Shown here: positions 42,154 to 60,226 of the stretch, in pieces
Layout of the letters: each line of letters starts with the position of its first letter
How positions within the stretch are numbered: the stretch's first letter is position 1
From: Psilocybe cubensis
Lineage: Eukaryota
Length of the DNA: 64,000 nt
Direction of reading: 5' to 3'
Assembly (NCBI GenBank): GCA_017499595.2
Contig: CM039004.1
Coordinates: 1,736,001 to 1,800,000, forward strand
Notes under the pieces: model-generated
The model's input: the letters and a program-made list of their open reading frames with translations, nothing else
Databases searched by the model: none
Told to the model about the DNA's origin: nothing
Made by a program: the position numbers and the translations under genes

Positions 42154-45084
42154 ATGAGCGCCATTCGAAACAACTCGAATCGCGCAGAGGCACGCAAGAG
42201 TAGGGCCACCCCTTACGCTCGCATTGTGGTGAGATTTGTTGTTGGTTTTTCCGGTTTCAACCATGCTGAAGATGAAAATCAGGTCAACAAGGTTTTTCGA
42301 TTTCTCGGATTTGTACCTGCAGACGAAGCTCAGGAATTGCGCGAACAACATCTCAATGGGACCTCGGAAACTGGCACAGACTCGTCCAAAGAACTCGTGA
42401 GTACCGCATTTATCCTTGTCATTTGTTGTTATCGTTATTCAATCATCAATAGCAAAATTGCACATCAGAGAATCGCCTTCAAAACATCAATGATAGTGGA
42501 CAGTCTGTTAAGCCCCCACATGCTAATGGTTCACGGGATCCCTTGACGGCTGCAAGCTCCTTCAATGCCGCGCCTGATCCTATTCCAACAACTGCACCAG
42601 TACCAGCCCACAAACTTGAGCGATCAACCTCTGAGCGGTATATGGTTGTTGACAAGCGTACGTGCTCATGCATAGTTTTGATTTACTCCTTCTAACTTGT
42701 CTGTTATTGTATAGCCCAACCACGATTTACATTTACGTATACGGCCCCAGGATCTTCATCCTTTTCTTCACTGTCAGAGCTTGCGCGCGACCAAACCCCC
42801 ACATCTTCCGCAAAAAAGAAGCTGGAAAGGAATCCTAACGGCATCTATCGCTGGGAGGGTGGTGGAAGTGCGAAACGCCCACGGAATCGATTCTCCTCTC
42901 CTGCTTTTGGCGCTTCTCCTGTGAAACCTTCACGCTCAGTTGTGACAGATAATACTCCTCTTGGAACAAATCCCCTGTCAGACACGAAACGACAGAAAGT
43001 AGATGAACGACCACAAACACCACCTCTCCCTTTCCCTCTTGCAGGTTCTCCTTCATCTTCACAAACCAATGGCGCCGACAACCTTCCAGCGCCGCGTCCA
43101 AATGGCACTATTGCAAAGCCAAGGGAGAGCTCGCCTGTTTCACGCCTTCGAACTCCCGCAAAGCCCACTGCGCCAGCCAATCCGTCACCATTAAGGCAGG
43201 CGTGGTCAGATCCAGCGCCTTCCCCAAATGATTCTAAAGCCGGTTCTTCTCAAGCAAATTCGTCTTCTCAGCCCAAACAATCAAAGACGGCGAACTTAAT
43301 GGCAGAATTGATTAAAGAAACCACGCCAGCGAAGAAGCCTGACCTTAGTAATCCATATCAAACTGCTAGTCCTCTTGCTAAAATCGGTCCTCCTCGACGA
43401 GGAAATAAGCGCACACGCGTAACTGGTAAACCTACTGCTTCTGCCAAGGATAAAAGTGGTAGTGAACAGAAGGCAGACACGAAGAAAGAAAAAGACTTGA
43501 GTGAATACTCACAGCAGGCTATTATCGAAGCGACTCTGCCCAAGGTATTTTTTCTGTTGTTCCTTTTCAGAAAGAATGTATATGTTAACCAATTTCTAGG
43601 GAAGCAAGCGATCTCGTCCTCCTGCCCATTTTGACAATGCTGCTGCTTCATCATCAAACGGAAGTCAGCCTGCTGACCGACGTGAGCTTCCTGTCACTGA
43701 GACTGGAAAACAGGTCTATACAGTGGAAGAACCTGAGGCAGATGATGAAGAATCACCTCGCAAAAAGGCTAAGCCAACTTTGAACGACAACGGTCTTCCC
43801 TCATCTTTTGCGCGTCAGTCACCATCTGCCCCAATGCCGGATGTTACTATCGAGGAAATTGGTGATGTCGTGATGGACAACACTAAAGAAAAGGAGAAGG
43901 AAGTCCCCAAGGTGATTATACCTACTCAGAGTAACGAATCTTCTACCAGTGCTGGAAGTCCAACTACCCGCAATCCATTTGGAGGATTTAAGCCCAGCTC
44001 GATACCAAAGGAACCCAGCAAACTCAGATTCAGCTTTCAGGCAGAGGGTACCTCTGCGCCTCCATCTCCTGCACCTCCTGGATCAGCTCCGCTTCCTCAA
44101 TCAACCCCTCCCGCGCTGCCTAAATCTGATTTCAAGTTCTCCCCTCCTTCGGGCAATTTTGAATTCAAATTCAAAGCTGAGGAAAAACCCATTAGCCCTA
44201 CATCGCAACCTGAGGCCACCAAGACAGCCGTCGATGGCTCTCGGGATGCTGAAGTTAAAGCCAAAGTTCGGGCTCTGAACCCATCTATGTTGCCAGTGTT
44301 CAACATCAATCTGAATAGCACGAGCAAGTACCCGGACACTGAGGAGCATGTCAGCGCCAGGAATCGAGTGAAATCACTTTCTCAAACTTCTCTTCCTGTT
44401 TTCGAATTTGGTCTATCCAAGTCCGTTCCCTTTTCCTTCGGCTTCGATCCGTCGAAGCCTACGTCTCCTTCACCATCAACTCGTCAATCCACCCCTCCTA
44501 AGCTCACAAAATCTTTCGAGAGTAACAGCGGTATATCCCTCCCAAAGGCCCCCGTACCCGTGTTCACTTTTGCAGACTTTGGCAAAGCCTCAACCCCAGT
44601 GGCTGAATCGTCCCAGCCTTCTGCTCCTCCAGTTAAAGGGTTCGACTTCGCAGCCGCTGGTATGAAAGTACCAACTGTCGGTAAAGATACTTGGCAATGT
44701 TCTCTCTGTTCTCTGTCAAACCCTTCGACAGCGAACAAGTGTGAGACTTGTGAAGCGCCAAATCCAAAGGCGACTCCGGTAGCACCTACAGTGAAAGGGT
44801 TCGATTTCGCTGCGGCAGGTATGAAGATGCCATCTGTCAACAAAGATACTTGGCAGTGTTCACTGTGTAGTTTGTCGAATCCTACATCGGCAACCAAGTG
44901 TGAGACATGTGAAACACCGAATCCGAAGGCGGCCCCCGCTGCACCACCAGCCAAAGGCTTTGATTATGCTGCGGCAGGAATGAAGGCACCTACTGTGAGC
45001 AAAGGCACTTGGACATGCTCTTTGTGTGGACTTTCCAGTCCAGAATCAGCATCTCAGTGTGTGACATGCGACAATCCCCGGTGA
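42154..45084 (+). CDS. nuclear-basket nucleoporin-like protein with FxF motifs and three RanBP2-type zinc fingers
   Basis: N-terminal basic R..PY segment and amphipathic stretch; FSF/FKF/FEF motifs; 3x W.C.LC...N.....C..C..P. Confidence 0.75.
44632..45084 (+). repeat. three ~159-bp (53-aa) coding repeats KGFDFAAAGMK..P...TWQCSLC
   Basis: Units start at 44632, 44791 and 44950. Confidence 0.9.
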
Positions 45085-48224: not shown

Positions 48225-48833
48225 TCAATGAACACCCAATGCCCCGAGCCTACTCTTTGCAATTTGTCCAACGTCGTAGACTGCGCGGCTTAGTTCCTTT
48301 CTCCACTCATCGCCTTCGACATCAATTGGTGATATGCTTTCCACCTCTGGGTCCACATCTGATAATGAATGAGAAATTCCAAGCATGCTCTCCATCTCTT
48401 CGGCAATGGCAGCACGGTTTCGTCCGTTGACAAAGGTAATATACCGCAGGCCGGGGTATTTACGTTCGTAGCATGCATTCAGGTGCTGCAAACGAGCCAA
48501 GACCTCTGGCGGTGTCGGCTTCAATCCTTGAGCACCTTGCTCGCTTGCACTAAGTGTCGAGAGGTTCTTGCTCTCTCCGATGCGGGGGTGCCCAGATATA
48601 AACTCCGACTGCGCTGTAACGTCCCACTTTTCGATTTCTTCCAAAGCATCATTGATTAGGTCCGTATATGATATGACTGAAGACTTGGACTTGAGAACGG
48701 CGGAAAGTTGCGGCTCAAGGACATTGATCAAGATAGGAGAGCGTTCGAAGAGGACCTCTAAGGCGACGGCGAGAGGCGAAGACGGTCCTGACGGCTCGGT
48801 TTGGATATCTTCTATTGCTGGTAACGCGCTCAT
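48225..48833 (-). CDS. OHCU decarboxylase (urate to allantoin pathway)
   Basis: LFERSP; FISGHPRIG; SASEQ; LNACYERKYPGLRYITFVNGR; IAKSRL. Confidence 0.88.
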   Translation of the reverse strand: MSALPAIEDIQTEPSGPSSPLAVALEVLFERSPILINVLEPQLSAVLKSKSSVISYTDLINDALEEIEKWDVTAQSEFISGHPRIGESKNLSTLSASEQGAQGLKPTPPEVLARLQHLNACYERKYPGLRYITFVNGRNRAAIAEEMESMLGISHSLSDVDPEVESISPIDVEGDEWRKELSRAVYDVGQIAKSRLGALGVH

Positions 48834-49112
48834 TGTATGTTGACTGTAGCGCAGCTGTACACGGCGGGACCTTCGCCACTGTTTTTTTGGCGTCGATCGG
48901 AGTTACAAATAAATACGTTTAGATTTACAAAATAAAACCAAATTTAATACTGAAAATTAGCATCCGTCGGCGATGTGTTTAGCCGCGTTAAAAATCACAA
49001 AATAACCAGTGCGTCAATGAGTCTCTGTTTTATAGCTTCAAATCCACTTCCTTACCACAGTCGTGTTCTGATTCTTTTTTTTTGTGGCAGCTAATTTGAC
49101 GGCAGCCTAATA

Positions 49113-52100
49113 ATGGTCTTCGGCATTGACCCTGCTGGTTAGTGACATCACTCTCGGTCCACCTTACTACTCGGCTGAATTAAGAATAGTCGTTCAACGA
49201 CAAGTTGTACACGGTCAAACACTCTATTATTGCCGGGTCTGTCAAGATACAAAAGGTCGCCAAAAACACCACCTCAATGAGCACTTCAACACCACAAAAC
49301 ACCAAACAGCTCTGCAGGCATTTCATACCAAAGAGAAATCCTCTGCTTCTTCACAAACCTCGTTGCCACCGGTTAACAAGTCCCTTTTGTTAGAGGACGC
49401 CTTACGTGCAATTCTTGTGTCTGCATCTCGTCAACCACACCAGCCTTTGTATCCTGCCAATGACCCTCGCCTTTCTAGGGTCTCGGCTGCACCTTCTTCA
49501 ACCACTTTGTCGACGGTCTCTCCACTCACCAGGATTGACTGGAATCTATTCAACGATGATGAAATTATGTCGGATCCATCTCCCATCGACTTTGCGTCTG
49601 CCCAAATATGTCAAGCTACTCTGGATTTTCTAAATTCTAATAACGAGAGTGATGGATCTGATGATGGTGGTGGCAGTCCTCCGCTTTCTGAGAGTAGCAA
49701 TGAGCAAGCCAATTCAGGTGTGTAACGTCTAAATAGCGCATATTGTTTGAGTCCTTAACTTTTAATCAGACACTGAACAAGTTGATAATGAATCTTTGCC
49801 CCGAAAACGTATGCGCGGTATTCACACCGACCCGGCTGAAGCTCGAAAATGGTATCTGTGGATTGATAAAATTGTGAGTCTTTGCCTGCCATCGGTTAGA
49901 TTTTCTGCTCAATCAATAAATCAGACTTGTTCTCTTGATGTTTTGATGCACCTTCCACGATCACTATTTTCACGTCGTCAGCTGGATTTATTTCTCTGGC
50001 TACTGCGTATCAATGGCGTCAACGATGTGCCTAGCGTTAAGGCTATGCAAGGCATTAACAAGGCATTGCAGAATTTGTGTGGAATTGAGACGAAGGAGTA
50101 CAAGGGCAAGCTGGGCAATGTATACTTTGTAAATTCTCTGTCTCAAATTCTTGCCCAGGTATGAATCTATATGTTACAAATGAATACTTTTGATTTCTAA
50201 CCAATCTGAATAGGAAATGTCTAATCCTCAAGTCCGACCGTTCCTTTACTTCTATCCTGAAGATACGGGCAAATCGATTAGCGAAACCTATCAAGCTTCG
50301 GGTTGGCTGCGTGAAATCAATCCTGAGGATGGTACTCCAATGATACGGCTCAATAATAATGATTTTTTCATCTTTGAACCAACTATGCTGATTGATGGAC
50401 GTTGCTGCATTCCTATTCAATGGTTTCTCCGAGAAGGTGTATTTTATGCCAAAGCCTGGCTTATGGAAGATACTCCTAGTGGTTGGGTTGTGTCCGAAGA
50501 TCGCGAAATCAAAATCACGCAAAGCCAATTGCTAAAGAATTTTATTCAGTTGTCAAAGGATCACTTGTTGTATAACTTGTCACACCCTTCACGAATATTT
50601 GGTATGGACTATATTTTATATATTTTATTCAATTTCTTATAAGTAAACAGGTGTGCGATCCATTCGGGGCCTGGGCTGTCGAAATGGACACGTACAGATC
50701 CTACTATTGGCAATCGTTGGCGTGTATTAGCAAAGGGATACCGAGTCTATTCTCTGCCGCTATGGATGTACTGTGACGATACGTCGGGAAACCAGTCCAA
50801 GAAGTGGAATAAGCACAACAGCTACCTATTTATTCTAGCTGGTCTTCCTCGCAAAAAGAGTTCACAAGAATACAATATCCATTTTCTATGCACTTCAGAT
50901 ATTGCGCCACCTCTAGAAATGCTTGATGGTGTGGTTGATCAACTTCAGTAAGTTGTCACTATCTTATATTTGCTGCACATATTCTAATCATTTTAACTTT
51001 AGATTGGCTCAAAAACATGGTATTTGGGTATGGGACTGTATACACAAAGAGGCCGTTATGATTTTTCCACCTGTATTTGCACTTCTGGGTGACAACCCTA
51101 TGCATAGCGAGTTTGCTTGTCATATTGGAATGCAAGGGAAATATTTTTGCCAGATTTGCTGGGCCAAAGGAGTTGACAGTCAAGAATGCCCACACAAAAA
51201 TCTTCCACATGACAGTTGTGCTCGACCCAACTTTCCTACCCTTTCAATCCATAGTGATGTTGATTCTGAAGATACCTTCACACGGCCTTCTCACAAACGG
51301 CGGAGGTACAAGGAGTCTATGGAGTCAATGCTTCGAAGGGTTAGTGATTTTATAAAGGTGCGTAAAAGTTGTTTTATAACAATTTATATTTTAATCACCT
51401 TTGATTCTAAGATTGGCAAACCGCGTCGCAAGAAAGAGACTATGGCTACTCTTGACTCTTTTTTGGAGCAAGCTAAGATGATTGGCACAAAATCAAAACT
51501 TAGAGCTGCAAAAACGGAAACTGGCATCAAGGATGTTTTCCAGGACTTCTTTATTGAAAAGCTTTTCAAATCTTATAAGGGAAAAGTTTCTACTCAGGCA
51601 AAGGAAAAAGCTCTTAAAGCGGCTGTCGATAAGCTTCCTGGAGACATCAAAAGTCCCGTATGGAAACTTGGTGCGATTGAAATATTTTGCTTTAATTTAC
51701 TAGCTAAATCTATATTCCAGGCTTGGATCCTCATCAGGACACTCCCGTCAAAATTCTGCATGTTGTATTGCTGGGTTTCGTTAAATATTTTTGGAGAGAC
51801 CTAGTTCAAAATCAGGTTACTCCTGCTAAAAAGCAAACTTTGATTATTCGTTTAAACAGCCTCAGTGTGGCAGGTCTAGGTATACCCACATTAAATGGCT
51901 CCACACTAGTGAACTATGCCGGGTCACTAACTGGTCGCGATTTCCGAATTATTGCTCAAGTAGCGCCATTTGTCATCTACAACATGGTTTCTCAGGAGGT
52001 TTATGATGCATGGGTGTCCCTATCTACGTTAGTTCCAGTTATTTGGCAGCCAGCAATCTCTAACATTGATGAGTACCTGGTGCGTCTTCATTGTGTCTTT

Positions 52101-53527
52101 CTTTAAATTGTTTTATTAAATTAAATCATGTTTTAGCCCAGATTAGAGGCCGACATCAAATACTTTTTGTTGAAAACGGCAACATGGACCTGCGCGTGGT
52201 TTAACAAAACCAAATTTCACATTATTCTTCATCTTCCAGAACATGTCCGTCGGTTTGGGCCAGCAATATTGTTTGCCACGGAATCGTTTGAGTCATTCAA
52301 TGCTATTATCCGTGCAAAAAGCATTCACAGTAATCACCAAGCACCTTCACATGATATTGCCCGTGGCTTTGCGCAAGGCAATCGGATTCGCCATCTTCTT
52401 AGTGGTGGTTTTTTTCTTCCACAAGAGCTTTATCAGTCTTGGAAAAAGGATCCAACAAATGTGGCTAATTCAGAGTGGCGCACTGCTGGACCTGGAGGTC
52501 TTCACCTTATTGATGCTCCAGACTCAACACCAGCTAGCTATTTGGGACTGCAGAAACCTGCTGCCAGTAAGGCTGGTAAGTTATATTTACAAATCTATAC
52601 TACTAGTGAGCGGTCTAATGCAATGGCCTAGGTTCATGCAAATCTAATGGCACAGATCCTCAACCATTTCATCGCACATTATGTGGCCAAAAGCTTCCCA
52701 ACATTGTGCTCAATACTGCAGCCAGCCAACAACTGTATGTAACCAATTCCCAGGTCTATCTGAGAAACGAGGATCTATGCACCATAGGACAGTTTGTCAT
52801 TGCCCAAATTCATCCATCCCAGCCGCCTCTGATAGGGTGTGTTCGAGAGATCTTGCAGCAGGTTGGCTCTCCAAACCATCTTCAAAACCGGCCCGATGGT
52901 ATTCTTATTCAAACAGCTTTACACCAACCGCCGTCGCACATATTGCCTGCTGGACAACTGCAGCCAGTTTTTATGCTCCGTCTGATTCTTCAGCAGGAAT
53001 GGTCCTTCATTCCGTGGAGTTGCCTTCTTTGCACCGTAAATACTCAACATGACTGTCAACGTCATGGATGCCAGGCAAATGGGCTACAATACATCTATCA
53101 AGAGCAAATACAAACTGATCAGACTAAGGCAACAATACTGCATCAAAACTCATTGGATGATATGCTCCTCCTCAATATGTGTCAAATGCGCGATGCTGCT
53201 CATCTCCAAAGTTTTCACCTCCACTCTGCCCCGTTAAACGAAGATGCTATAATTCAAAGAAGTGTGGCTCAAGCCATTGTTCAACGGAAGGTAGGAGAAG
53301 CCTCCCAATCAAGTACTTCCAAACCAACCAAAACACCAACAGCCGCCTTGAGACAACATGCCCAGAGCCCCTTGGGCACCCCTACTCTAGCAGCCACACC
53401 TTCTGGGGGTGTCAGTTTGCCTCAACATGCTTCAGCAGGAACATCTTCTGGAGGTGTTAGTTCACCTCGACGTAGCAGGCAAGCATCTGTGGTATATCCA
53501 GGTCAAATAACATTGGACTTTCGATAG
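49113..53527 (+). CDS. CACTA/CMC(Plavaka-like) DDE transposase, multi-exon, probably decaying
   Basis: N-terminal CxxC..H..H finger; YCDDTSGNQSKKWNKH; LLGDNPM..E; FCQIC; PVKILHVVLLG; KFHIILHLPEHVRRFGPAILFATESFESFN; NTQHDC. Confidence 0.85.
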
Positions 53528-53580
53528 AAGTAAAACCATACTGTATTTATTTACTAGAATTCTACAAGAAGAATAGCAGA

Positions 53581-55870
53581 TCAAACTTGTCCAGAGACCT
53601 CAAACGCAGCTTTTGAAATAAGATCTTGTAAGGTGCACAACATGCCCAACCCCCTCTTCCATCGTGTTGGCCTAAGCTCCATTTGCTCTTGATAAAGCTT
53701 GGGGTTTGTACGTTTTAACTCCTTCTCGGTGCGGTAGCCATAATCAACCCATCTAAACAGGCCACCTGAAGCATACTGAGTAAAGGAAGCACGCTCCTCT
53801 CCGTGTTCAATGCTGGTGTTTGAATGTTCTAGGACGGCGGACAGCATAAGGATGGTAGATCCTGCAGGGAACTCAATGGCCACTTTCAGGCCCCACACCA
53901 CAAAGTGACCACCCTTTTTGGCATTGAATTTCCCTAAAGACTGGATGGCGCACCAGCCATATGGACAGTTTTTGATATCAAAATGCGGGATGGTGCAAAC
54001 CACAGACCCTAGGTTGAAGGTGGCCGCCGGAAATATGCTGCGGCGAAACAGTCGGACTAGCGTGGAGTCATTGGCGAATATCTTATCCATGTACAACTTA
54101 TAGTGGTTGTACACTTTAGGGCTCCATGTAGCAAATGCACCTGTGGATGTGTTTAAAAACAGGTTCACAAAACAGGCATAGGAGTCACTTACTGCTGGCA
54201 AAACTGGCCATTTGTTGAATGCTTTCCGACTGCAAGAGCTTGGCAGTGATTTTGGGATGGCGCTGGACGCGGTTGAGTGGAGAGTGTGTCCCTACACCGT
54301 GTGTAACGCCGATGTTGAGTGCGGGATAATGACCACGATTTTCTGAATAGTCTTTGTGTGTAAACACTGTGGTGTGTCCGGCCTCCCTCAGTAGATCAAA
54401 TGCTTCCTCCGTGGCACGTTCGTATGCAGGGTCCTTAGGACGGCCTGCCAGAACCATAAAAATACGTCCGTCTTCAGAAACAAACGGGACGGGGGTGCTA
54501 TAGTGCATTAGCTTTAACTCCATCAAACTGAACAGATCAGAAGAGTTGTAACTCACCATCTATCCCAAGGTATAATGCGGAACCCAAGGGCCTTGATGGC
54601 ATCCAAGCTATATAGGTGACTTTTGTGGGGTTTTGTTGGTTTAGCACCATAGGCGCCTTGCGTGGCAGGCAAAGTGTCAAGCTTGACGTTGAGAGCCTCT
54701 GGCTGGCAGCTGGGAAGCATGCTTAAAAGACTGGGTTTTGGTGTGTGTCCGTGCTTATTGTATTGTAACGTCCGCTGATACTTGCGGCTGCGATGACTGT
54801 TGGAAAGCCCATTGTATGGCCTTTTCAGGCTGGCGGTTTGCACGGATGGGTCTCGCTGAGGTAACGAAAGCGAAAGCTTGGTCGACGATTGCGAAGGTAC
54901 AATCGGCGGTGTCAACATATTGTCAACCGATGGTGTCAACGCATCGTGGGCTGACAGCATCGACTCGCGGGTTGACGGGGTCGACGCGTTGTGGGCTGAC
55001 GTCGTCGATTCGCGGGTTGACGGGATCGACACATCGTGGGCTGACGTCGTCGATTCGCGGGTTGACGGGGTCGACGCGTTATGGACTGACAGCATCGACT
55101 CGCGGGTTGACGGGGTCGACGCGTTGTGGGCTGACGTCGTCGATTCACGGGTTGACGGGATCGACACGTCGTGGGCTGACGTCGTCGATTCGCGGGTTGA
55201 TGGGGTCGACGCGTTATAGACTGACAGCATCGACTCGCGGGTTGACAGGGTCGACGCGTTGTGGGCTGACAGCATCGACTCGCAGGTTGACGGGGTCGAT
55301 GCGTTGTGGGCTGACGTCGTCGATTCGCGGGTTGACGGCGTTGACACGTCGTGGATCGACGTCATCGATTCACGGGTTGACGGGGTCGACACGTCGTGGA
55401 TCAACGCCGTCGGCGTCGACGTATTGTTCGTAAACTGCATCCAGGTATCGTCCGTCGACCGATTCTTTGACGCATCGTGGATCGACGGCGTCCAGATGTT
55501 GTGAACGGATGGCGTCGACGTATCGTCGGTCGATGGAATCAAGACATCTATTGACAAGTACGTGAATGGGCAGATGACGAGTAGGCAAACATGGTGACTC
55601 ACCTTGATCTAGATCTAACAAGTCTGTGTCCTCCCTTGCATCTGCTGCCCGCCAGGCAGAGATCAAGTCAAAAGCCAACGGATCCTCCCATACCTCAGGC
55701 TGACACTGGGCATACACCCTCCCAGATCATGTCTGCTTGAACAGATTTCCGATTTAAAACTTGGTATATGCATAGAAAAGTTTCCAAGGACGTACCGTAT
55801 AGCGCGCCTATTGGCAGGCCGACATCTGTGCATGCAAAAACCAACGGTGAGCAGGGTTCTTGCAATCATG
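53581..55870 (-). CDS. TET/JBP-family 2OG-Fe(II) nucleic-acid dioxygenase (N-terminal exons uncertain)
   Basis: RGHYPALNIGVTHG; SIFPAATFNLG; PHFDIKN (HxD); GGHFVVW.LK..IEFPAGSTIL; LEHSN (distal His); ERASFTQY (2OG Arg); GGLFRWVDYG; introns 54141-54192 and 54498-54556. Confidence 0.9.
54925..55410. repeat. 45-bp coding minisatellite (~11 units, 15-aa AHNASTPSTRESTTS) with 135-bp higher-order periodicity
   Basis: Unit gggctgacgtcgtcgattcgcgggttgacggggtcgacgcgttgt seen repeatedly, with 9 CpG per consensus unit. Confidence 0.95.
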
Positions 55871-56063
55871 ACACGCCCCAGCTCCTGCGTTGGCTGGCAG
55901 TTTGACAGACCCGGTCCAGGGGTGATCCCTCGCCTGGCAAGCCTCTAACCAACGCGAGAGCTGGGCCCTGTCGCGTTTCTGATATACGAACGTTTGCTTA
56001 CCGGTGGGACGGGTATTTATACGAACGCGAATGAGGGGAATGTTGAACCTCATTAAACAGATC

Positions 56064-56104
56064 AGGGGTCAGGTGATAGGGGTCAGGTGATAGGGGTCAG
56101 GTGA
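56064..56104. repeat. 3x 14-bp AGGGGTCAGGTGA(T) tandem repeat upstream of the TET gene
   Basis: caggggtcaggtgataggggtcaggtgataggggtcaggtgacg; minus-strand TATAAA at ~56016-56021. Confidence 0.85.
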
Positions 56105-56316
56105 CGTAGGTGGACGCGTTGCACCCGCGACACACTTCAACTGCTTTGACCTCAGAACACCTGGTAATACGTCAGTCCGCTACAAACACAAACACCGCAG
56201 AGTAATGCAGGTCTCAGGAATACTACCCAGGTGCGTTATATTTCATGCATCCCTTTTGTAAGGCCAAATTGACAATATAGTATTGAAAGTGCTGCAGATT
56301 CTATTTCACAAACCGT

Positions 56317-57221
56317 CTAAACAATAGCAATGGGATTGTCAGACTGCAAAGGCTGAGGAGGAATGTAAACCGGTACGTTAATGCCATGGGACGTCAACGC
56401 TGCTTTCAGCTGTTGGCTCCAATGCCTCTCTTCTACCAGCATAATTGCTGTGTTGTGTTCCTGTCTGACATATGTCCTCAACTGCTCTTCTAGACCCTCC
56501 ACCACCAACGTCAGGTATGCAGAGCGTTGTTTGGAATTCTTCACAGACCTAACCAAGTTTTTTACCGCCTTTTTAGTTGACTGGGCCTCCTGGCGTGCTG
56601 CGGCAAGGTCCAACCATGCCGTTCAAAGCTGATTCTTATAGGCCACAGCTTCTCTTGTTGCCTCGATGGCTATTTCACGCCAAACAGTAATCTCTGCCTC
56701 CAGATCGCGTCGGGAACGTGGATAGGCCCTGTTCAAGCTGATTGTGGTTTTGTTGCGGGGAACCTTGGAGGAATGGTCTAATAAAGTGGATGTGAGTGGT
56801 CTCAACCTTTCACAGCAATACTGTCAACTTATGAAACGCACCATTCTTTTCAGGCATTTTGGATACAACCGGCTGGTCTTCGAGATCGCTTTGGCACGTT
56901 GATCCAGGGGTATCACCTAGTTGAGTTTGGATGGTGTAAGTTCAAGTGCATTCGTGATAAGATTCTATTTACCAAGGCCGTAAAAACTGTAGTTGGGCAG
57001 ACCATCAGTAACGTCAAGCCCTACGGGTGGGAGGTCAGGGTAGGTTATGCTGAGGTTTAACAAGGTTTGTTTACTGACCTGCATTCAGAGTTGACAGGTA
57101 CTTTTTAGGTGCCTCATCGTCTTCATCTTGGTTGTGCTTCCTGAAACTTTTTTTTGGCGATGGAGTCTTAGGCGACAGCAGGCGGGATGGTAGACAATTG
57201 TCAAGAGTGTTGGTAGACATG
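56317..57221 (-). pseudogene. transposon accessory gene with C-terminal coiled coil and an in-frame TGA at 56623-56625
   Basis: ORFs 56623-56805 and 56317-56613 share a frame and are separated by one TGA (KNQL*TAWLDL); upstream exons start at MSTNTLDN. Confidence 0.6.
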
Positions 57222-57370
57222 TTGAGCGGTTCAAGATAACGAAACCACACAAATATCAGACTGATGGTTAAGGGAGTGAGAGAGTGAGACAAAAGGTGAG
57301 CAAACCTTTGGAATAACTTTGACGCCTCCTTTTTATGTGACGCATAGGTTTGTTGTTGTTGATGTGACAC

Positions 57371-57430
57371 GACGCGAATTGTTGATTGACCTCGAACGCG
57401 ACGCGAATTGTTGATTGACCTCAAACGCGA
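57371..57430. repeat. 2x 29-bp repeat GACGCGAATTGTTGATTGACCTC(G/A)AACGC in the internal divergent promoter
   Basis: Seen directly; TATAAAA at ~57475. Confidence 0.85.
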
Positions 57431-57518
57431 TGTGATTCGTTTGTTGTGGCAAACATGGCAAATCAAACTTGGGGTATAAAAGCAAGGTAAGAGATGTTTG
57501 CTTGATTCTGAATCCACA

Positions 57519-59078
57519 ATGTCTCATTCTTCGATTGACCCAGCTTTTGCATCACAGCCTGTTTCTCGTGACGTGGACCGCCCAACTGGTACATAGCTGT
57601 TTATTGACAACCTGGTTCACCGATTCAACCTCACAAGCAACCACAGTGCAGATCTCACTTTTCTTTATCAGGTAAACTTGTTTTTTACATAACGCCTACA
57701 TCAAACTGCTTCTAACTCGTAAACCCGCAGATCTGTACAGCCGTGCCTGAAGAGCAACCTCCTTAGACCGAAGTGATAAGTCGAATCATGATGTTGGCCT
57801 GCCAGTTTGGGGCCGAAGTTCGTCTGCATAAAGCACTGACTGCCACGCAAACACATCTACAAGGACTCGGGCAGCTGAGCAGTTTTTTGGCTGATTATGA
57901 GCTGCAAAAAGATGAGAACTTTGTGTTATCAAATGCACAAAAGGTGAGTCATTGTTTGCCTTTATGAACACGGTGGTCTGAGCCAGCTTTTAGATGGCCA
58001 TTAAATCAACCTGTATCAAAGAGCTTCTAAAGCCCTCTAGACAGTCCTTTAAGACGCTTCACATCGATGTTGAGGTGCGTTCTTTTCACTTTAATTGGCG
58101 GTCTAAAACAAATGCATTTGCAGGCAAAGATGAAAAAAAAGCCCGCAGACAATTACCTTGACAACATCCTGAATCGGCTGGGACGTGAGGCCAAATGGAT
58201 GGCGCATATACAAACCGTTTGTACAATTCAGAGAAACACGCTTCGAAAAGAGGTGTGTGGTTGTCCGGTTTACCATATGCCGTGTACTGATGTGTGAAAT
58301 TAAAGATCATACAAAGCATAACTCCAGGCCCAAAGTTTACTTCTGTGCAAGAATTTGCGGCGGGCCTCATTGTGAAATATTGTCTGCCTACGTCAGAGTC
58401 TGGTGCAAATTCCAATACAGCTTACCTCTCAAAACATGTGTTATTGGTGTGTCTTCAATATTTCTGATTCAAAAAGTTTCACTAACGTGGCAATGTAAAG
58501 TGGCGGTTTTTCTGGGACCATTCATCTATGTTTTCGGCCTTTGAACTTGAGAAGGATGACAACAACTCAGAAGAGGAGAACAATGACCAGGATTTTGGAA
58601 CACCAAGCACCGACAACTCTAGCGATTCGGGTCATTCTGCTACCAAAAACGTAAATTGCAAAAAACAAACATTCCCGCTGGGAAAACTCGCGGTCGGGTG
58701 GCTGATGGCGAAGACTATTGGTCCAAAGTTGATCAATGGCTCAAGAGGCTTGACGATGAGCTGGGAGATAATACAGCTGAGTTGAAACAGTCCGAGTTTT
58801 CTCTTGTATTCTCAATGAGTTATGCTAAGCTTGTGAATAGATTTATTGCTGAATGTCTGGAGATGGACTCTCTCAGGACCAATAAAGGCTTAGATTTCTC
58901 AAGCCACCCTTCCGAGCGCTCTTTTACCAGCCCTAGCGATGTCACATCCGACCCACAACCCACCACTATACAGTCCTTTCCTTCCAATTCTTCTTCGAGG
59001 CTGCCTGAACCTCATTTAAATTTTGGTAATGCAATTGCTCAATTATTTAGTGGTCCTTCAACAGGTAGACCTTTTTAG
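57519..59078 (+). pseudogene. multi-exon transposon accessory gene of unknown function with two in-frame TAG stops
   Basis: ATG 57519; TAG at 57594-57596 and 57764-57766 in otherwise open exons; later GRVADGEDYWSKVDQWL. Confidence 0.6.
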
Positions 59079-59550
59079 CCACTAGACTCCACTACAATAT
59101 AGTTATTAATTATGCGGAAATGTATGTGTAAACGCAACTAAATCTGAAGTTGATGTTGAGAACATGTAGCCCCTAATATTCAGTTTGCTAGTGTTTGGCA
59201 CCGGTGATCATTTGATCAACAGCAACGAGTTATCGCTTTCATCTTTTCCTCCATGATCTCGCACAGCGGCACCGTGTTTTCCGCCGTGCATTGTTAAGAG
59301 ATCCAGCCCTTTCATGTACTAAAAGCCATGCACTGGAAAGATCCAGATTCCCAATATGTGGGAACGCGTTGAGCGGCATGGTTGGGCATAGTTTTTTTTT
59401 GGTGACTGACATTTGATTTGTAGATCGCACACTGGTGCAAGAACCTGCTTATTGCTGAGTATTTTTAGACAGCTATCCATGGCGAAAATTACTTATTTTA
59501 ACACCACAGGTTCAAGAATATGTGCTTTGAAGTTTGACAAGGTCCAAGAA

Positions 59551-59711
59551 CACCATTGCCGGAATCGATAGCCATCGTTGACACCATAGTTTGGCTCTGG
59601 AGAATGGGTGATAGTTGGATGCGCAACACAACATCGTCAACGCCATAGCCGGAATCGATCGCCATTGTCGACACCATAGTTTGGCTCTGTGGAATGGGTA
59701 TTTGTGGATGC
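59551..59711. repeat. two ~70-bp direct repeats (90-bp period) near the right end of the element
   Basis: gccggaatcgat.gccat.gt.gacaccatagtttggctctg..gaatgggt starting at 59551 and 59641. Confidence 0.85.
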
Positions 59712-59898
59712 AATAACCCAGTGAGTACTTTATAGGATAGACGTTAGATTAGTAGTTATTTAGCTTCAGCTTCATGCTCAATATATGGTGTTTTATTATA
59801 ACCTAATCTTGTATGAAAGACCAAAAATAAAATTTCACAATGATATTATACTGTGAATACATATGAAAAGCCTACAAAAAAATATGTATTTGCTAGAA

Positions 59899-60049
59899 TG
59901 TGGCTGACACAAACGGTGCTTGGCACTTATGTGGCAGCCACATGAATTTCGGCCTGTTGTGTCACCCACTGATATCGGATGGAGGTGGCAGACACATGTT
60001 TATTTGTGTCTGACATACATCGGCCAAACACATCCAAAAATGTGTCCAG
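59899..60049. repeat. subterminal quasi-palindromic repeats TGTG(G/T)C..(A/C)CAC(A)
   Basis: tgtggctgacaca, tgtggcagccaca, tgtgtcacccac, gtggcagacaca and tgtgtctgacata within 160 bp of the right terminus. Confidence 0.7.
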
Positions 60050-60226
60050 CGGCCGCCTGTGTAATGGTCGCGATGGGTGAGTGTCTCCTCTTGTCGGTGA
60101 CAAAATTAGACTTGGCGGACCGATGATCCCGATATCCCTACGATTATTCCCCGCCTTCATCAAGTTCCCCCAACTTGGATCATATGTTCGAAGGAGCTTC
60201 TTTATCTGTTCCCACTACATCTAGTT

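Follow-up and report, generated by a model that had tools for sequence, protein, structure and literature searches.

A CpG-dense tandem array in a DNA transposon of Psilocybe cubensis is probably a coding minisatellite, amplified by slippage or unequal exchange within the disordered linker of a TET-like enzyme that the transposon encodes. It lies in the 64,000-nucleotide stretch analysed here (contig CM039004.1, positions 1,736,001 to 1,800,000), hereafter the window, to which all coordinates refer unless a locus is named. The first-pass annotation had proposed the array as a possible methylation sensor of the kind known from the Arabidopsis ROS1 gene, with a Ser/Thr-rich linker expanded by slippage as fallback. 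It is the fallback that our data favour: the array peptide is coil by pLDDT, unit number varies between 10, 7 and 6, and variable S/T/P-rich linkers occur family-wide. The ROS1-type sensor is disfavoured by the exonic position of the array, by the window's gene being a pseudogene and by a decay of array CpG that resembles the rest of the element.

The array resides in an ESTA-like DNA transposon of 11,202 bp (48860..60061, plus strand) with short imperfect inverted termini, whose CAC..GTG ends conform to the 5'-CA..TG-3' terminus of ESTA. The dinucleotide TA is duplicated at 48858-48859 and 60062-60063, flanking the element, and TA was present on both sides in 10/10 copies having both ends in view. 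A CMCT-type transposase gene (49113..53527, plus strand) contains DD, D, CxxC, H-x4-H and E motifs as judged by eye; the ESTA motifs were likewise read by eye in P0024, P0029 and P0042, with catalytic residues assigned by position alone. Pfam searches with six full-length transposases returned no transposase family. By its termini, TA duplication and transposase motifs, the element fits ESTA (CMCT). Apart from the TET-like gene described below, it carries a putative third gene (56317..57220, minus strand) and a putative fourth gene (57519..59078, plus strand), as well as a right subterminal direct repeat (59549..59699; 2 x 61 bp, spacing 90, with GTYRAC motifs). A 14-bp repeat (56064..56105) lies upstream of a TATA-like box at 56021; it occurs three times in the window copy and twice in the other subfamilies and in X1-X3, which are contigs from three other samples of one study and covered 55410-57600.

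The genome contains at least 11 copies of the transposon. The array was found in 11/11 of them, so that its absence from most sister copies, which the first-pass annotation had named as evidence against its proposal, is not what we observed. All 100 pattern matches of the 45-bp unit fall within these 11 copies, among the matches listed. The window's subfamily comprises eight copies with 10 units each (seven identical, one with 3 substitutions), the C10 and C3 copies, with 2 differing sites between them, have 7 units, and the C5b copy has 6 units and carries an insertion.

As to its surroundings, the element is inserted 5' of a minus-strand host gene (ORF 48225-48902; window 48225-48859), ~25 bp from its start codon; by sequence type, this gene may encode an OHCU-decarboxylase-like protein. 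C-x2-C-x10-C-x2-C zinc fingers are encoded by a 159-bp repeat in another host gene (44626-45012), presumably a nucleoporin-type RanBP2 finger array. Elsewhere in the genome, a CpG-rich nested tandem array with periods of 61, 151, 180 and 300 (L067 8850-10000, G000:C3) lies on the downstream side of an ESTA-type transposase, at a distance of ~9.5 kb and with no TET match close by, and two apparently identical ESTA-type transposases stand in tandem, 9,635 bp apart, in a region that likewise gave no TET match (L068-L070, G000:C4 2272001-2302000).

TRF reported a tandem array at 54935-55399 with a period of 45, 10.3 copies, 83% matches and no indels, and in addition a 135-bp period row for this region. 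The core minisatellite (54949..55398, minus strand) consists of ten 45-bp units with 75 CpG in total, each unit being composed of a 21-nt and a 24-nt subunit that both begin with TCGA. Read from 55398 to 54949, the units contain 8, 9, 5, 6, 8, 8, 7, 9, 8 and 7 CpG, form a single stop-free frame and encode a peptide with the pattern H-[DN]-[VA]-S-T-P-S-T-R-E-S-x-x-S-x. An array of about 11 in-frame 45-bp units with up to 9 CpG each had been noticed before; array, open frame and CpG load are borne out, but the count is ten full units plus one partial. The core is bordered by degenerate subunits downstream (54859..54948, minus strand) and upstream (55399..55533, minus strand), where 9-30 nt separate TCGA/TGGA starts and 23 CpG occur in 135 bp. 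The degenerate upstream units that had been described do exist, but in the 45-bp register they reach only 33-36% identity, the stretch being built of older, 24-nt-type subunits instead. Similarly, the 3-unit higher-order repeat that had been described holds in one part: a 135-bp period is confined to the last seven units (lag-3 differences 1, 2, 2 and 1) and to the window's subfamily. A conserved 3-unit repeat is rejected, as the C10 and C3 arrays have a 2-unit (90-bp) higher-order period instead.

Positions 54925-55540 contain 101 CpG in 616 bp (o/e 1.85), whereas 5000 base shuffles of the same stretch gave 54.6 +/- 5.2 CpG with a maximum of 72. The array is the CpG maximum of the window, with 78 CpG per 465 bp compared with a median of 19; CpG o/e in the host part is 0.83. 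Its single-strand fold has a z of -2.66.

The TET/JBP-like dioxygenase gene (53581..55825, minus strand) is delineated by inferred exons, the public models P0002 and P0297 and a fold match. Its five inferred exons (55825-55796, 55732-55603, 55547-54557, 54497-54193 and 54140-53581, minus strand) have canonical splice sites and are separated by inferred introns of 63, 55, 59 and 52 nt, and this model agrees with the public predictions for open-frame copies (P0002, P0297). The array starts ~290 bp past the inferred start codon, in inferred exon 3, and ~490 bp after the TATA-like box, which would place it away from the transcription start. The array is predicted to be coding from its open frame, the canonical splice sites and the public gene models.

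The predicted model of the TET protein matched CcTet with a Z of 22.6 and an rmsd of 3.7 over 278 aligned residues, followed by NgTET1 (Z 19.2), TET2 (18.4), CMD1 (13.5) and other 2OG oxygenases (at most 11.9), and Foldseek gave an E of 1e-12 for the TET-type double-stranded beta-helix fold. Sequence identity to the best fold matches is only 9-15%, and to CcTet 9-12%. The iron triad H494, D496 and H547 and the 2OG residue R558 are invariant or nearly so across 150 family rows, and the H-x-D...H and R residues are unaltered in the last exon of the window copy. Pfam Tet_JBP scored 23.1 bits on the last-exon frame, under the cut-off of 34.9; full-length P0002 gave no Tet_JBP hit in Pfam, and PDB sequence searches gave no TET hit. 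By fold and triad, the enzyme is TET-like, with 5mC oxidation as its putative activity. Assignment to the AG type (Kojima 2025) was rejected: phmmer and hmmsearch gave no hit to CcTet, and N and C follow H-x-D rather than G/S and D (ungapped count, AG rows by eye). The TET-fold clade to which the enzyme belongs is a large one, with no fewer than 5532 representatives (E<=0.001, 50% clustering); it falls under the Pfam Tet_JBP cut-off and, by eye, looks unlike the PU, AG and PE types.

Members of this family share a layout of R-x-T-R-S-G motif, helix, variable S/T/P-rich linker, basic helix and catalytic domain. The N-terminal motif is present in 52/150 family rows and appears in the family alignment as a conserved R-x-T-R-S-G-x-x-[FY]-S-P-[WYF] at residues 8-20 of P0002; by analogy, it might be a chromatin-tethering arginine anchor. 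In the structure model, residues 47-240 are coil with pLDDT mostly <50, while values are mostly >90 from ~260 to 620. The array peptide is thus predicted to form a disordered Ser/Thr/Pro linker between the R-x-T-R-S-G motif and the TET-fold domain. At 325 aa, the distance from motif to domain exceeds that of every other motif-bearing row (52 rows, median 191.5). For the highest S/T/P fraction per 40 aa, the family median is 0.425, and tandem peptide repeats occur in 3/150 family members.

In the window copy, the TET/JBP gene that had been annotated is TET-like by fold but broken, with two premature stops upstream of the array. The first (TAG, 55808..55810, minus strand) lies in inferred exon 1, and the second (TGA, 55727..55729, minus strand) is a CpG transition that hits the arginine of the conserved T-R-S-G motif; both are sense codons in C10, C3 and C5b. 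The X1-X3 contigs show the sense variant alone at both sites, and the stops are therefore derived. The TET frame is open in C10, C3 and C5b, and TET is dead in 8/11 copies. The other genes of the window's subfamily are damaged as well. The transposase gene has lost 1 bp near 50661, a frameshift that precedes the catalytic motifs, and at 51750 a conserved E has become K; the third gene has an in-frame stop near 56625, where C10 is open, and the fourth a 1-bp loss near 58644 relative to C10/C3. The public models P0001, P0291 and P0292 of this subfamily bypass the TET stops by fusion to an upstream gene or by a later start, and a shortened TET product devoid of the motif is conceivable.

Outside the array, the window copy differs from C10 at 97 sites, 61 of which are CpG transitions on the window's lineage and 8 on that of C10. 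This load argues that the eight copies spread in trans after a period of decay. With 8/11 copies near-identical and four genes broken, the sequences look like a recent amplification of a dead full-length element; the window's subfamily was not seen in the three other samples (X1-X3). The C-to-T losses on the window's lineage are biased to TpCpG when compared with C10 (36/243 vs 25/643 in other CpG contexts, p=1e-7), and the C5b copy has a similar bias (p=0.01). TpCpG hypermutation has been reported in Pucciniomycotina and not in the Agaricomycotina tested (PMC3318451).

The CpG of the array exceed what the peptide calls for. The non-redundant array has 54 CpG, as compared to 17-22 expected for the peptide if encoded with host or uniform codon frequencies; of the NCN codons, 53-82% are NCG in the array and 11-17% elsewhere. 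Amino-acid content as the source of the CpG is rejected, since their number is about three times the requirement of the peptide. Unit types with 7 CpG were amplified beside types with 9-10 CpG, including in the open-frame C10 copy. An excess at z>=3 was found in 0/55 scored metagenomic linkers, which derive from 80 TET loci that include some duplicates (25/80 have no scorable linker), and no ESTA-like transposase was detected in the DNA examined around these 80 loci. Among paralogous loci outside ESTA elements it was found in 0/13 scorable ones in a 60-aa test; this set holds 15 loci, several of them near-duplicates and 2 of them lacking a linker frame, and L059 was left out as it overlaps L058.

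The first-pass annotation had suggested comparing unit number and CpG retention among copies. Unit number varies, as described above, and array CpG are lost at the element-wide rate: in the window's subfamily, 9/83 CpG were lost in the array and 61/451 elsewhere in the element (p=0.60). Corrected for context, 9 losses were observed vs 13.4 expected in the window's subfamily and 5 vs 4.0 in C5b. Six of the nine array losses are synonymous and three non-synonymous, with 44% synonymous expected, though these are few events. A shielding of array CpG from decay is not shown, as the loss rate matches that of the rest of the element. This shows that the array is methylatable and unprotected in damaged copies and says little on working ones: the comparison was run on dead or damaged copies, in which no selection is expected.

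The sole other ESTA-borne TET in the genome, among the matches listed, belongs to a sister element on contig C4 (L060/L061, G000:C4 ~973400-979656) that is present as a single copy among these matches and carries its TET gene in the same tail-to-tail orientation as the window element. Its left terminus is near-identical, and its transposase contains a stop. The two TET proteins are 51% identical over the domain, and 4-fold sites are 65-74% different, that is, saturated. The linker of the sister contains a 105-bp tandem duplication with 13 CpG per unit vs ~6 expected (z 3.4-4.0; 3.4-3.8 when scored by unit). In a matched scanning test its best window reached a z of 3.6, compared with 3.1 for the best other paralog. 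It is also the CpG peak of its element, peaks per 300 bp amounting to 48-49 in the window family and 37 in the sister. The longest word common to both linkers is a 10-mer at most, no longer than chance (p=0.52), and the sister linker does not match the left end of its own element significantly (p=0.175). A 12-mer is common to the degenerate downstream subunits of C10 and both right subterminal repeat copies, with a post hoc p of ~0.03 in one of six comparisons. We also sought CpG-rich subterminal arrays at the ends of TET-less ESTA relatives, whose ends were not found. Four further sites (L153-L156) carry the left end of the sister without coding matches and are probably non-autonomous derivatives. 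Adjoining the sister element is a 6,060-bp LTR-type stretch with 0 CpG (L060 1200-7260, G000:C4; 1332 C, 1174 G, no N).

A slippage-grown linker offers the most economical account of these data. A CpG-rich seed of 21-24 nt, made of NCG codons for Ser, Thr and Pro, gave rise to the 45-bp dimer and the dimer to 90-bp or 135-bp higher-order units, unit number diverging among subfamilies. The encoded coil is predicted to sit between the N-terminal basic motif with its helix and the catalytic domain; if the protein tolerates extra length, as we infer, the array would serve as a longer flexible tether. CpG density would mostly be a legacy of the seed, and the self-complementary TCGA/GTCGAC words may promote duplication. 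In a silenced copy the array would become methylated and erode like the rest of the element, as the mutation spectrum suggests. Because all four genes look broken in the window's subfamily, the array would be a passenger there in a non-autonomous element. Its eight copies, nearly identical to one another, were mobilised while carrying a broken TET gene; this would have happened in trans, probably by means of the open-frame C10/C3 copies. What counts against the linker account is that the peptide fails to explain the CpG and that the sister family provides a weaker parallel.

Cis-acting functions of the CpG, platform and sensor taken jointly, are a minority possibility. In general terms, ESTA elements with this TET clade might keep a CpG array by selection at the DNA level, as a landing pad or methylation read-out and hence as a dual-coding cis element, which we consider unlikely. 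If it were true, each family would demethylate itself with dead copies riding along as a side effect, and the parallel CpG-rich duplication of the sister would be a trace of it. As a specific form, a platform similar to that of VANC, in which the CpG word cluster recruits an element protein (the TET enzyme, the transposase or a cargo protein) or is the preferred substrate of the enzyme and seeds demethylation of the family, appears doubtful. Its precedent is the best among the alternatives, VANC acting on fast-evolving tandem repeats and itself containing tandem peptide motifs in variable regions. Such a platform would fit the location of the CpG peak of the element, which falls in the linker in both ESTA-TET families, the synonymous CpG excess in 2/2 ESTA-borne families, the TCGA every 21/24 bp and the 12-mer common to both right subterminal repeat copies. 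It would also agree with the accumulation of VANC targets as fast-evolving tandem repeats (PMC5735166) and with the palindromic CpG word repeats seen by eye at several rust ESTA ends in the supplement of PMC12730594. However, VANC targets are non-coding, whereas the array lies in an open frame joined to catalytic exons; the 12-mer comes from one of six comparisons, the left-end match of the sister is insignificant, and the linkers of both families share no word beyond chance. Moreover, both families go back to one capture, and thousands of relatives exist, none of which, among those scored, has the feature.

Selection of the peptide repeat itself, whose S-T-P-S sites or tether length would tune reach or specificity, is improbable. 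In its favour, tandem peptide motifs are frequent in VANC variable regions (PMC5735166), and the conserved R-x-T-R-S-G could, by analogy, be an arginine-anchor tether of the class described in PMC9040877. But such repeats occur in just 3/150 family members, the units differ non-conservatively even in open-frame copies, and the synonymous CpG excess is left unexplained.

The originally proposed methylstat, a feedback loop in which TET transcription would go up or down with array methylation, is quite improbable. The CpG-dense array does lie in the 5' half of a TET-fold gene in 11/11 copies, it is evidently methylatable in vivo as judged from CpG transitions, and a passing suggestion has been made that TE-associated TET genes regulate themselves through oxidised 5mC (PMC8889193). 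Yet it is exonic and not at the transcription start as MEMS is, TET is dead in 8/11 copies, unit number and CpG per unit drift freely, and a selfish element would profit from escaping methylation rather than from homeostasis. Splicing that removes some or all of the array, or that yields isoforms of differing unit number, is highly improbable: nine units contain CAG in phase with the upstream donor and the array-less linker would approximate the family length, but the four inferred introns are 52-63 nt, no examined copy has its frame interrupted within the array, the matching exon of the sister is continuous, and the public models examined, though predictions, retain the array.

The family bears on the question of how a transposon-encoded TET finds its own family. 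If the array is a mere slippage product, it would be an ordinary case of linker expansion; should recoding of its CpG alter expression or targeting, the coding sequence of an anti-silencing enzyme would itself contain a cis element, a situation of which a literature search largely without subscription papers found no described example. It provides a ready test case, as 7-unit open-frame, 6-unit damaged and eight 10-unit dead copies occur in one genome and are separable by long reads.

Several known systems invite comparison. The first exon of maize Spm, a CACTA-clade element, contains a GC-rich internal repeat whose methylation is tied to activity; this GC-rich control region is non-coding and adjoins the promoter, and our literature search found no paper on it. 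At the level of the enzyme, CcTet from Coprinopsis cinerea (7vpn), NgTET1 (5cg8) and TET2 (9hxv) are the best fold matches and have H-x-D, H and R in common with the protein described here, which differs from them in its low identity, in yielding no PDB sequence hit and in staying below the Pfam Tet_JBP cut-off.

ESTA elements and fungal transposons with a TET gene have been described before (Kojima 2025, PMC12730594). The element resembles the TET+ ESTA of that study in its CAC..GTG ends, TA duplication, CxxC and H-x4-H motifs and TET cargo, and its first 10 bases equal, by eye, those of ESTA-3_PCor. The TET+ families reported there have rust hosts and a PU-type TET, whereas the present host is an agaric and the enzyme looks, by eye, unlike PU, AG or PE. 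Data S1 lists one Agaricus ESTA, which is not a TET+ row, and in the accessible parts of the paper we found neither a TET+ ESTA from agarics nor an enzyme of this clade. The words 'minisatellite' and 'CpG' are absent from its main text, though an array within a consensus sequence of the supplement could have been missed. Kojima infers a family-specific benefit of the TET cargo and calls its function unvalidated (PMC12730594).

The ROS1 MEMS of Arabidopsis is, like the array, a methylatable sequence at the gene for a demethylase (PMC5758694). MEMS is short, spanning -40 to -2 relative to the transcription start, and has been shown to promote expression of the host gene to which it belongs, whereas the array extends over 450 bp within an exon of a transposon gene. 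VANC from the VANDAL transposons of Arabidopsis is not a dioxygenase and its targets are non-coding (PMC5735166), binding of the present array by an element protein being putative. What the two systems share is an anti-silencing protein encoded by a transposon, tandem peptide repeats in the variable region of that protein, and repeat units that are quickly gained and lost among related copies; the variable regions of VANC have been speculated to tune reach or specificity (PMC5735166).
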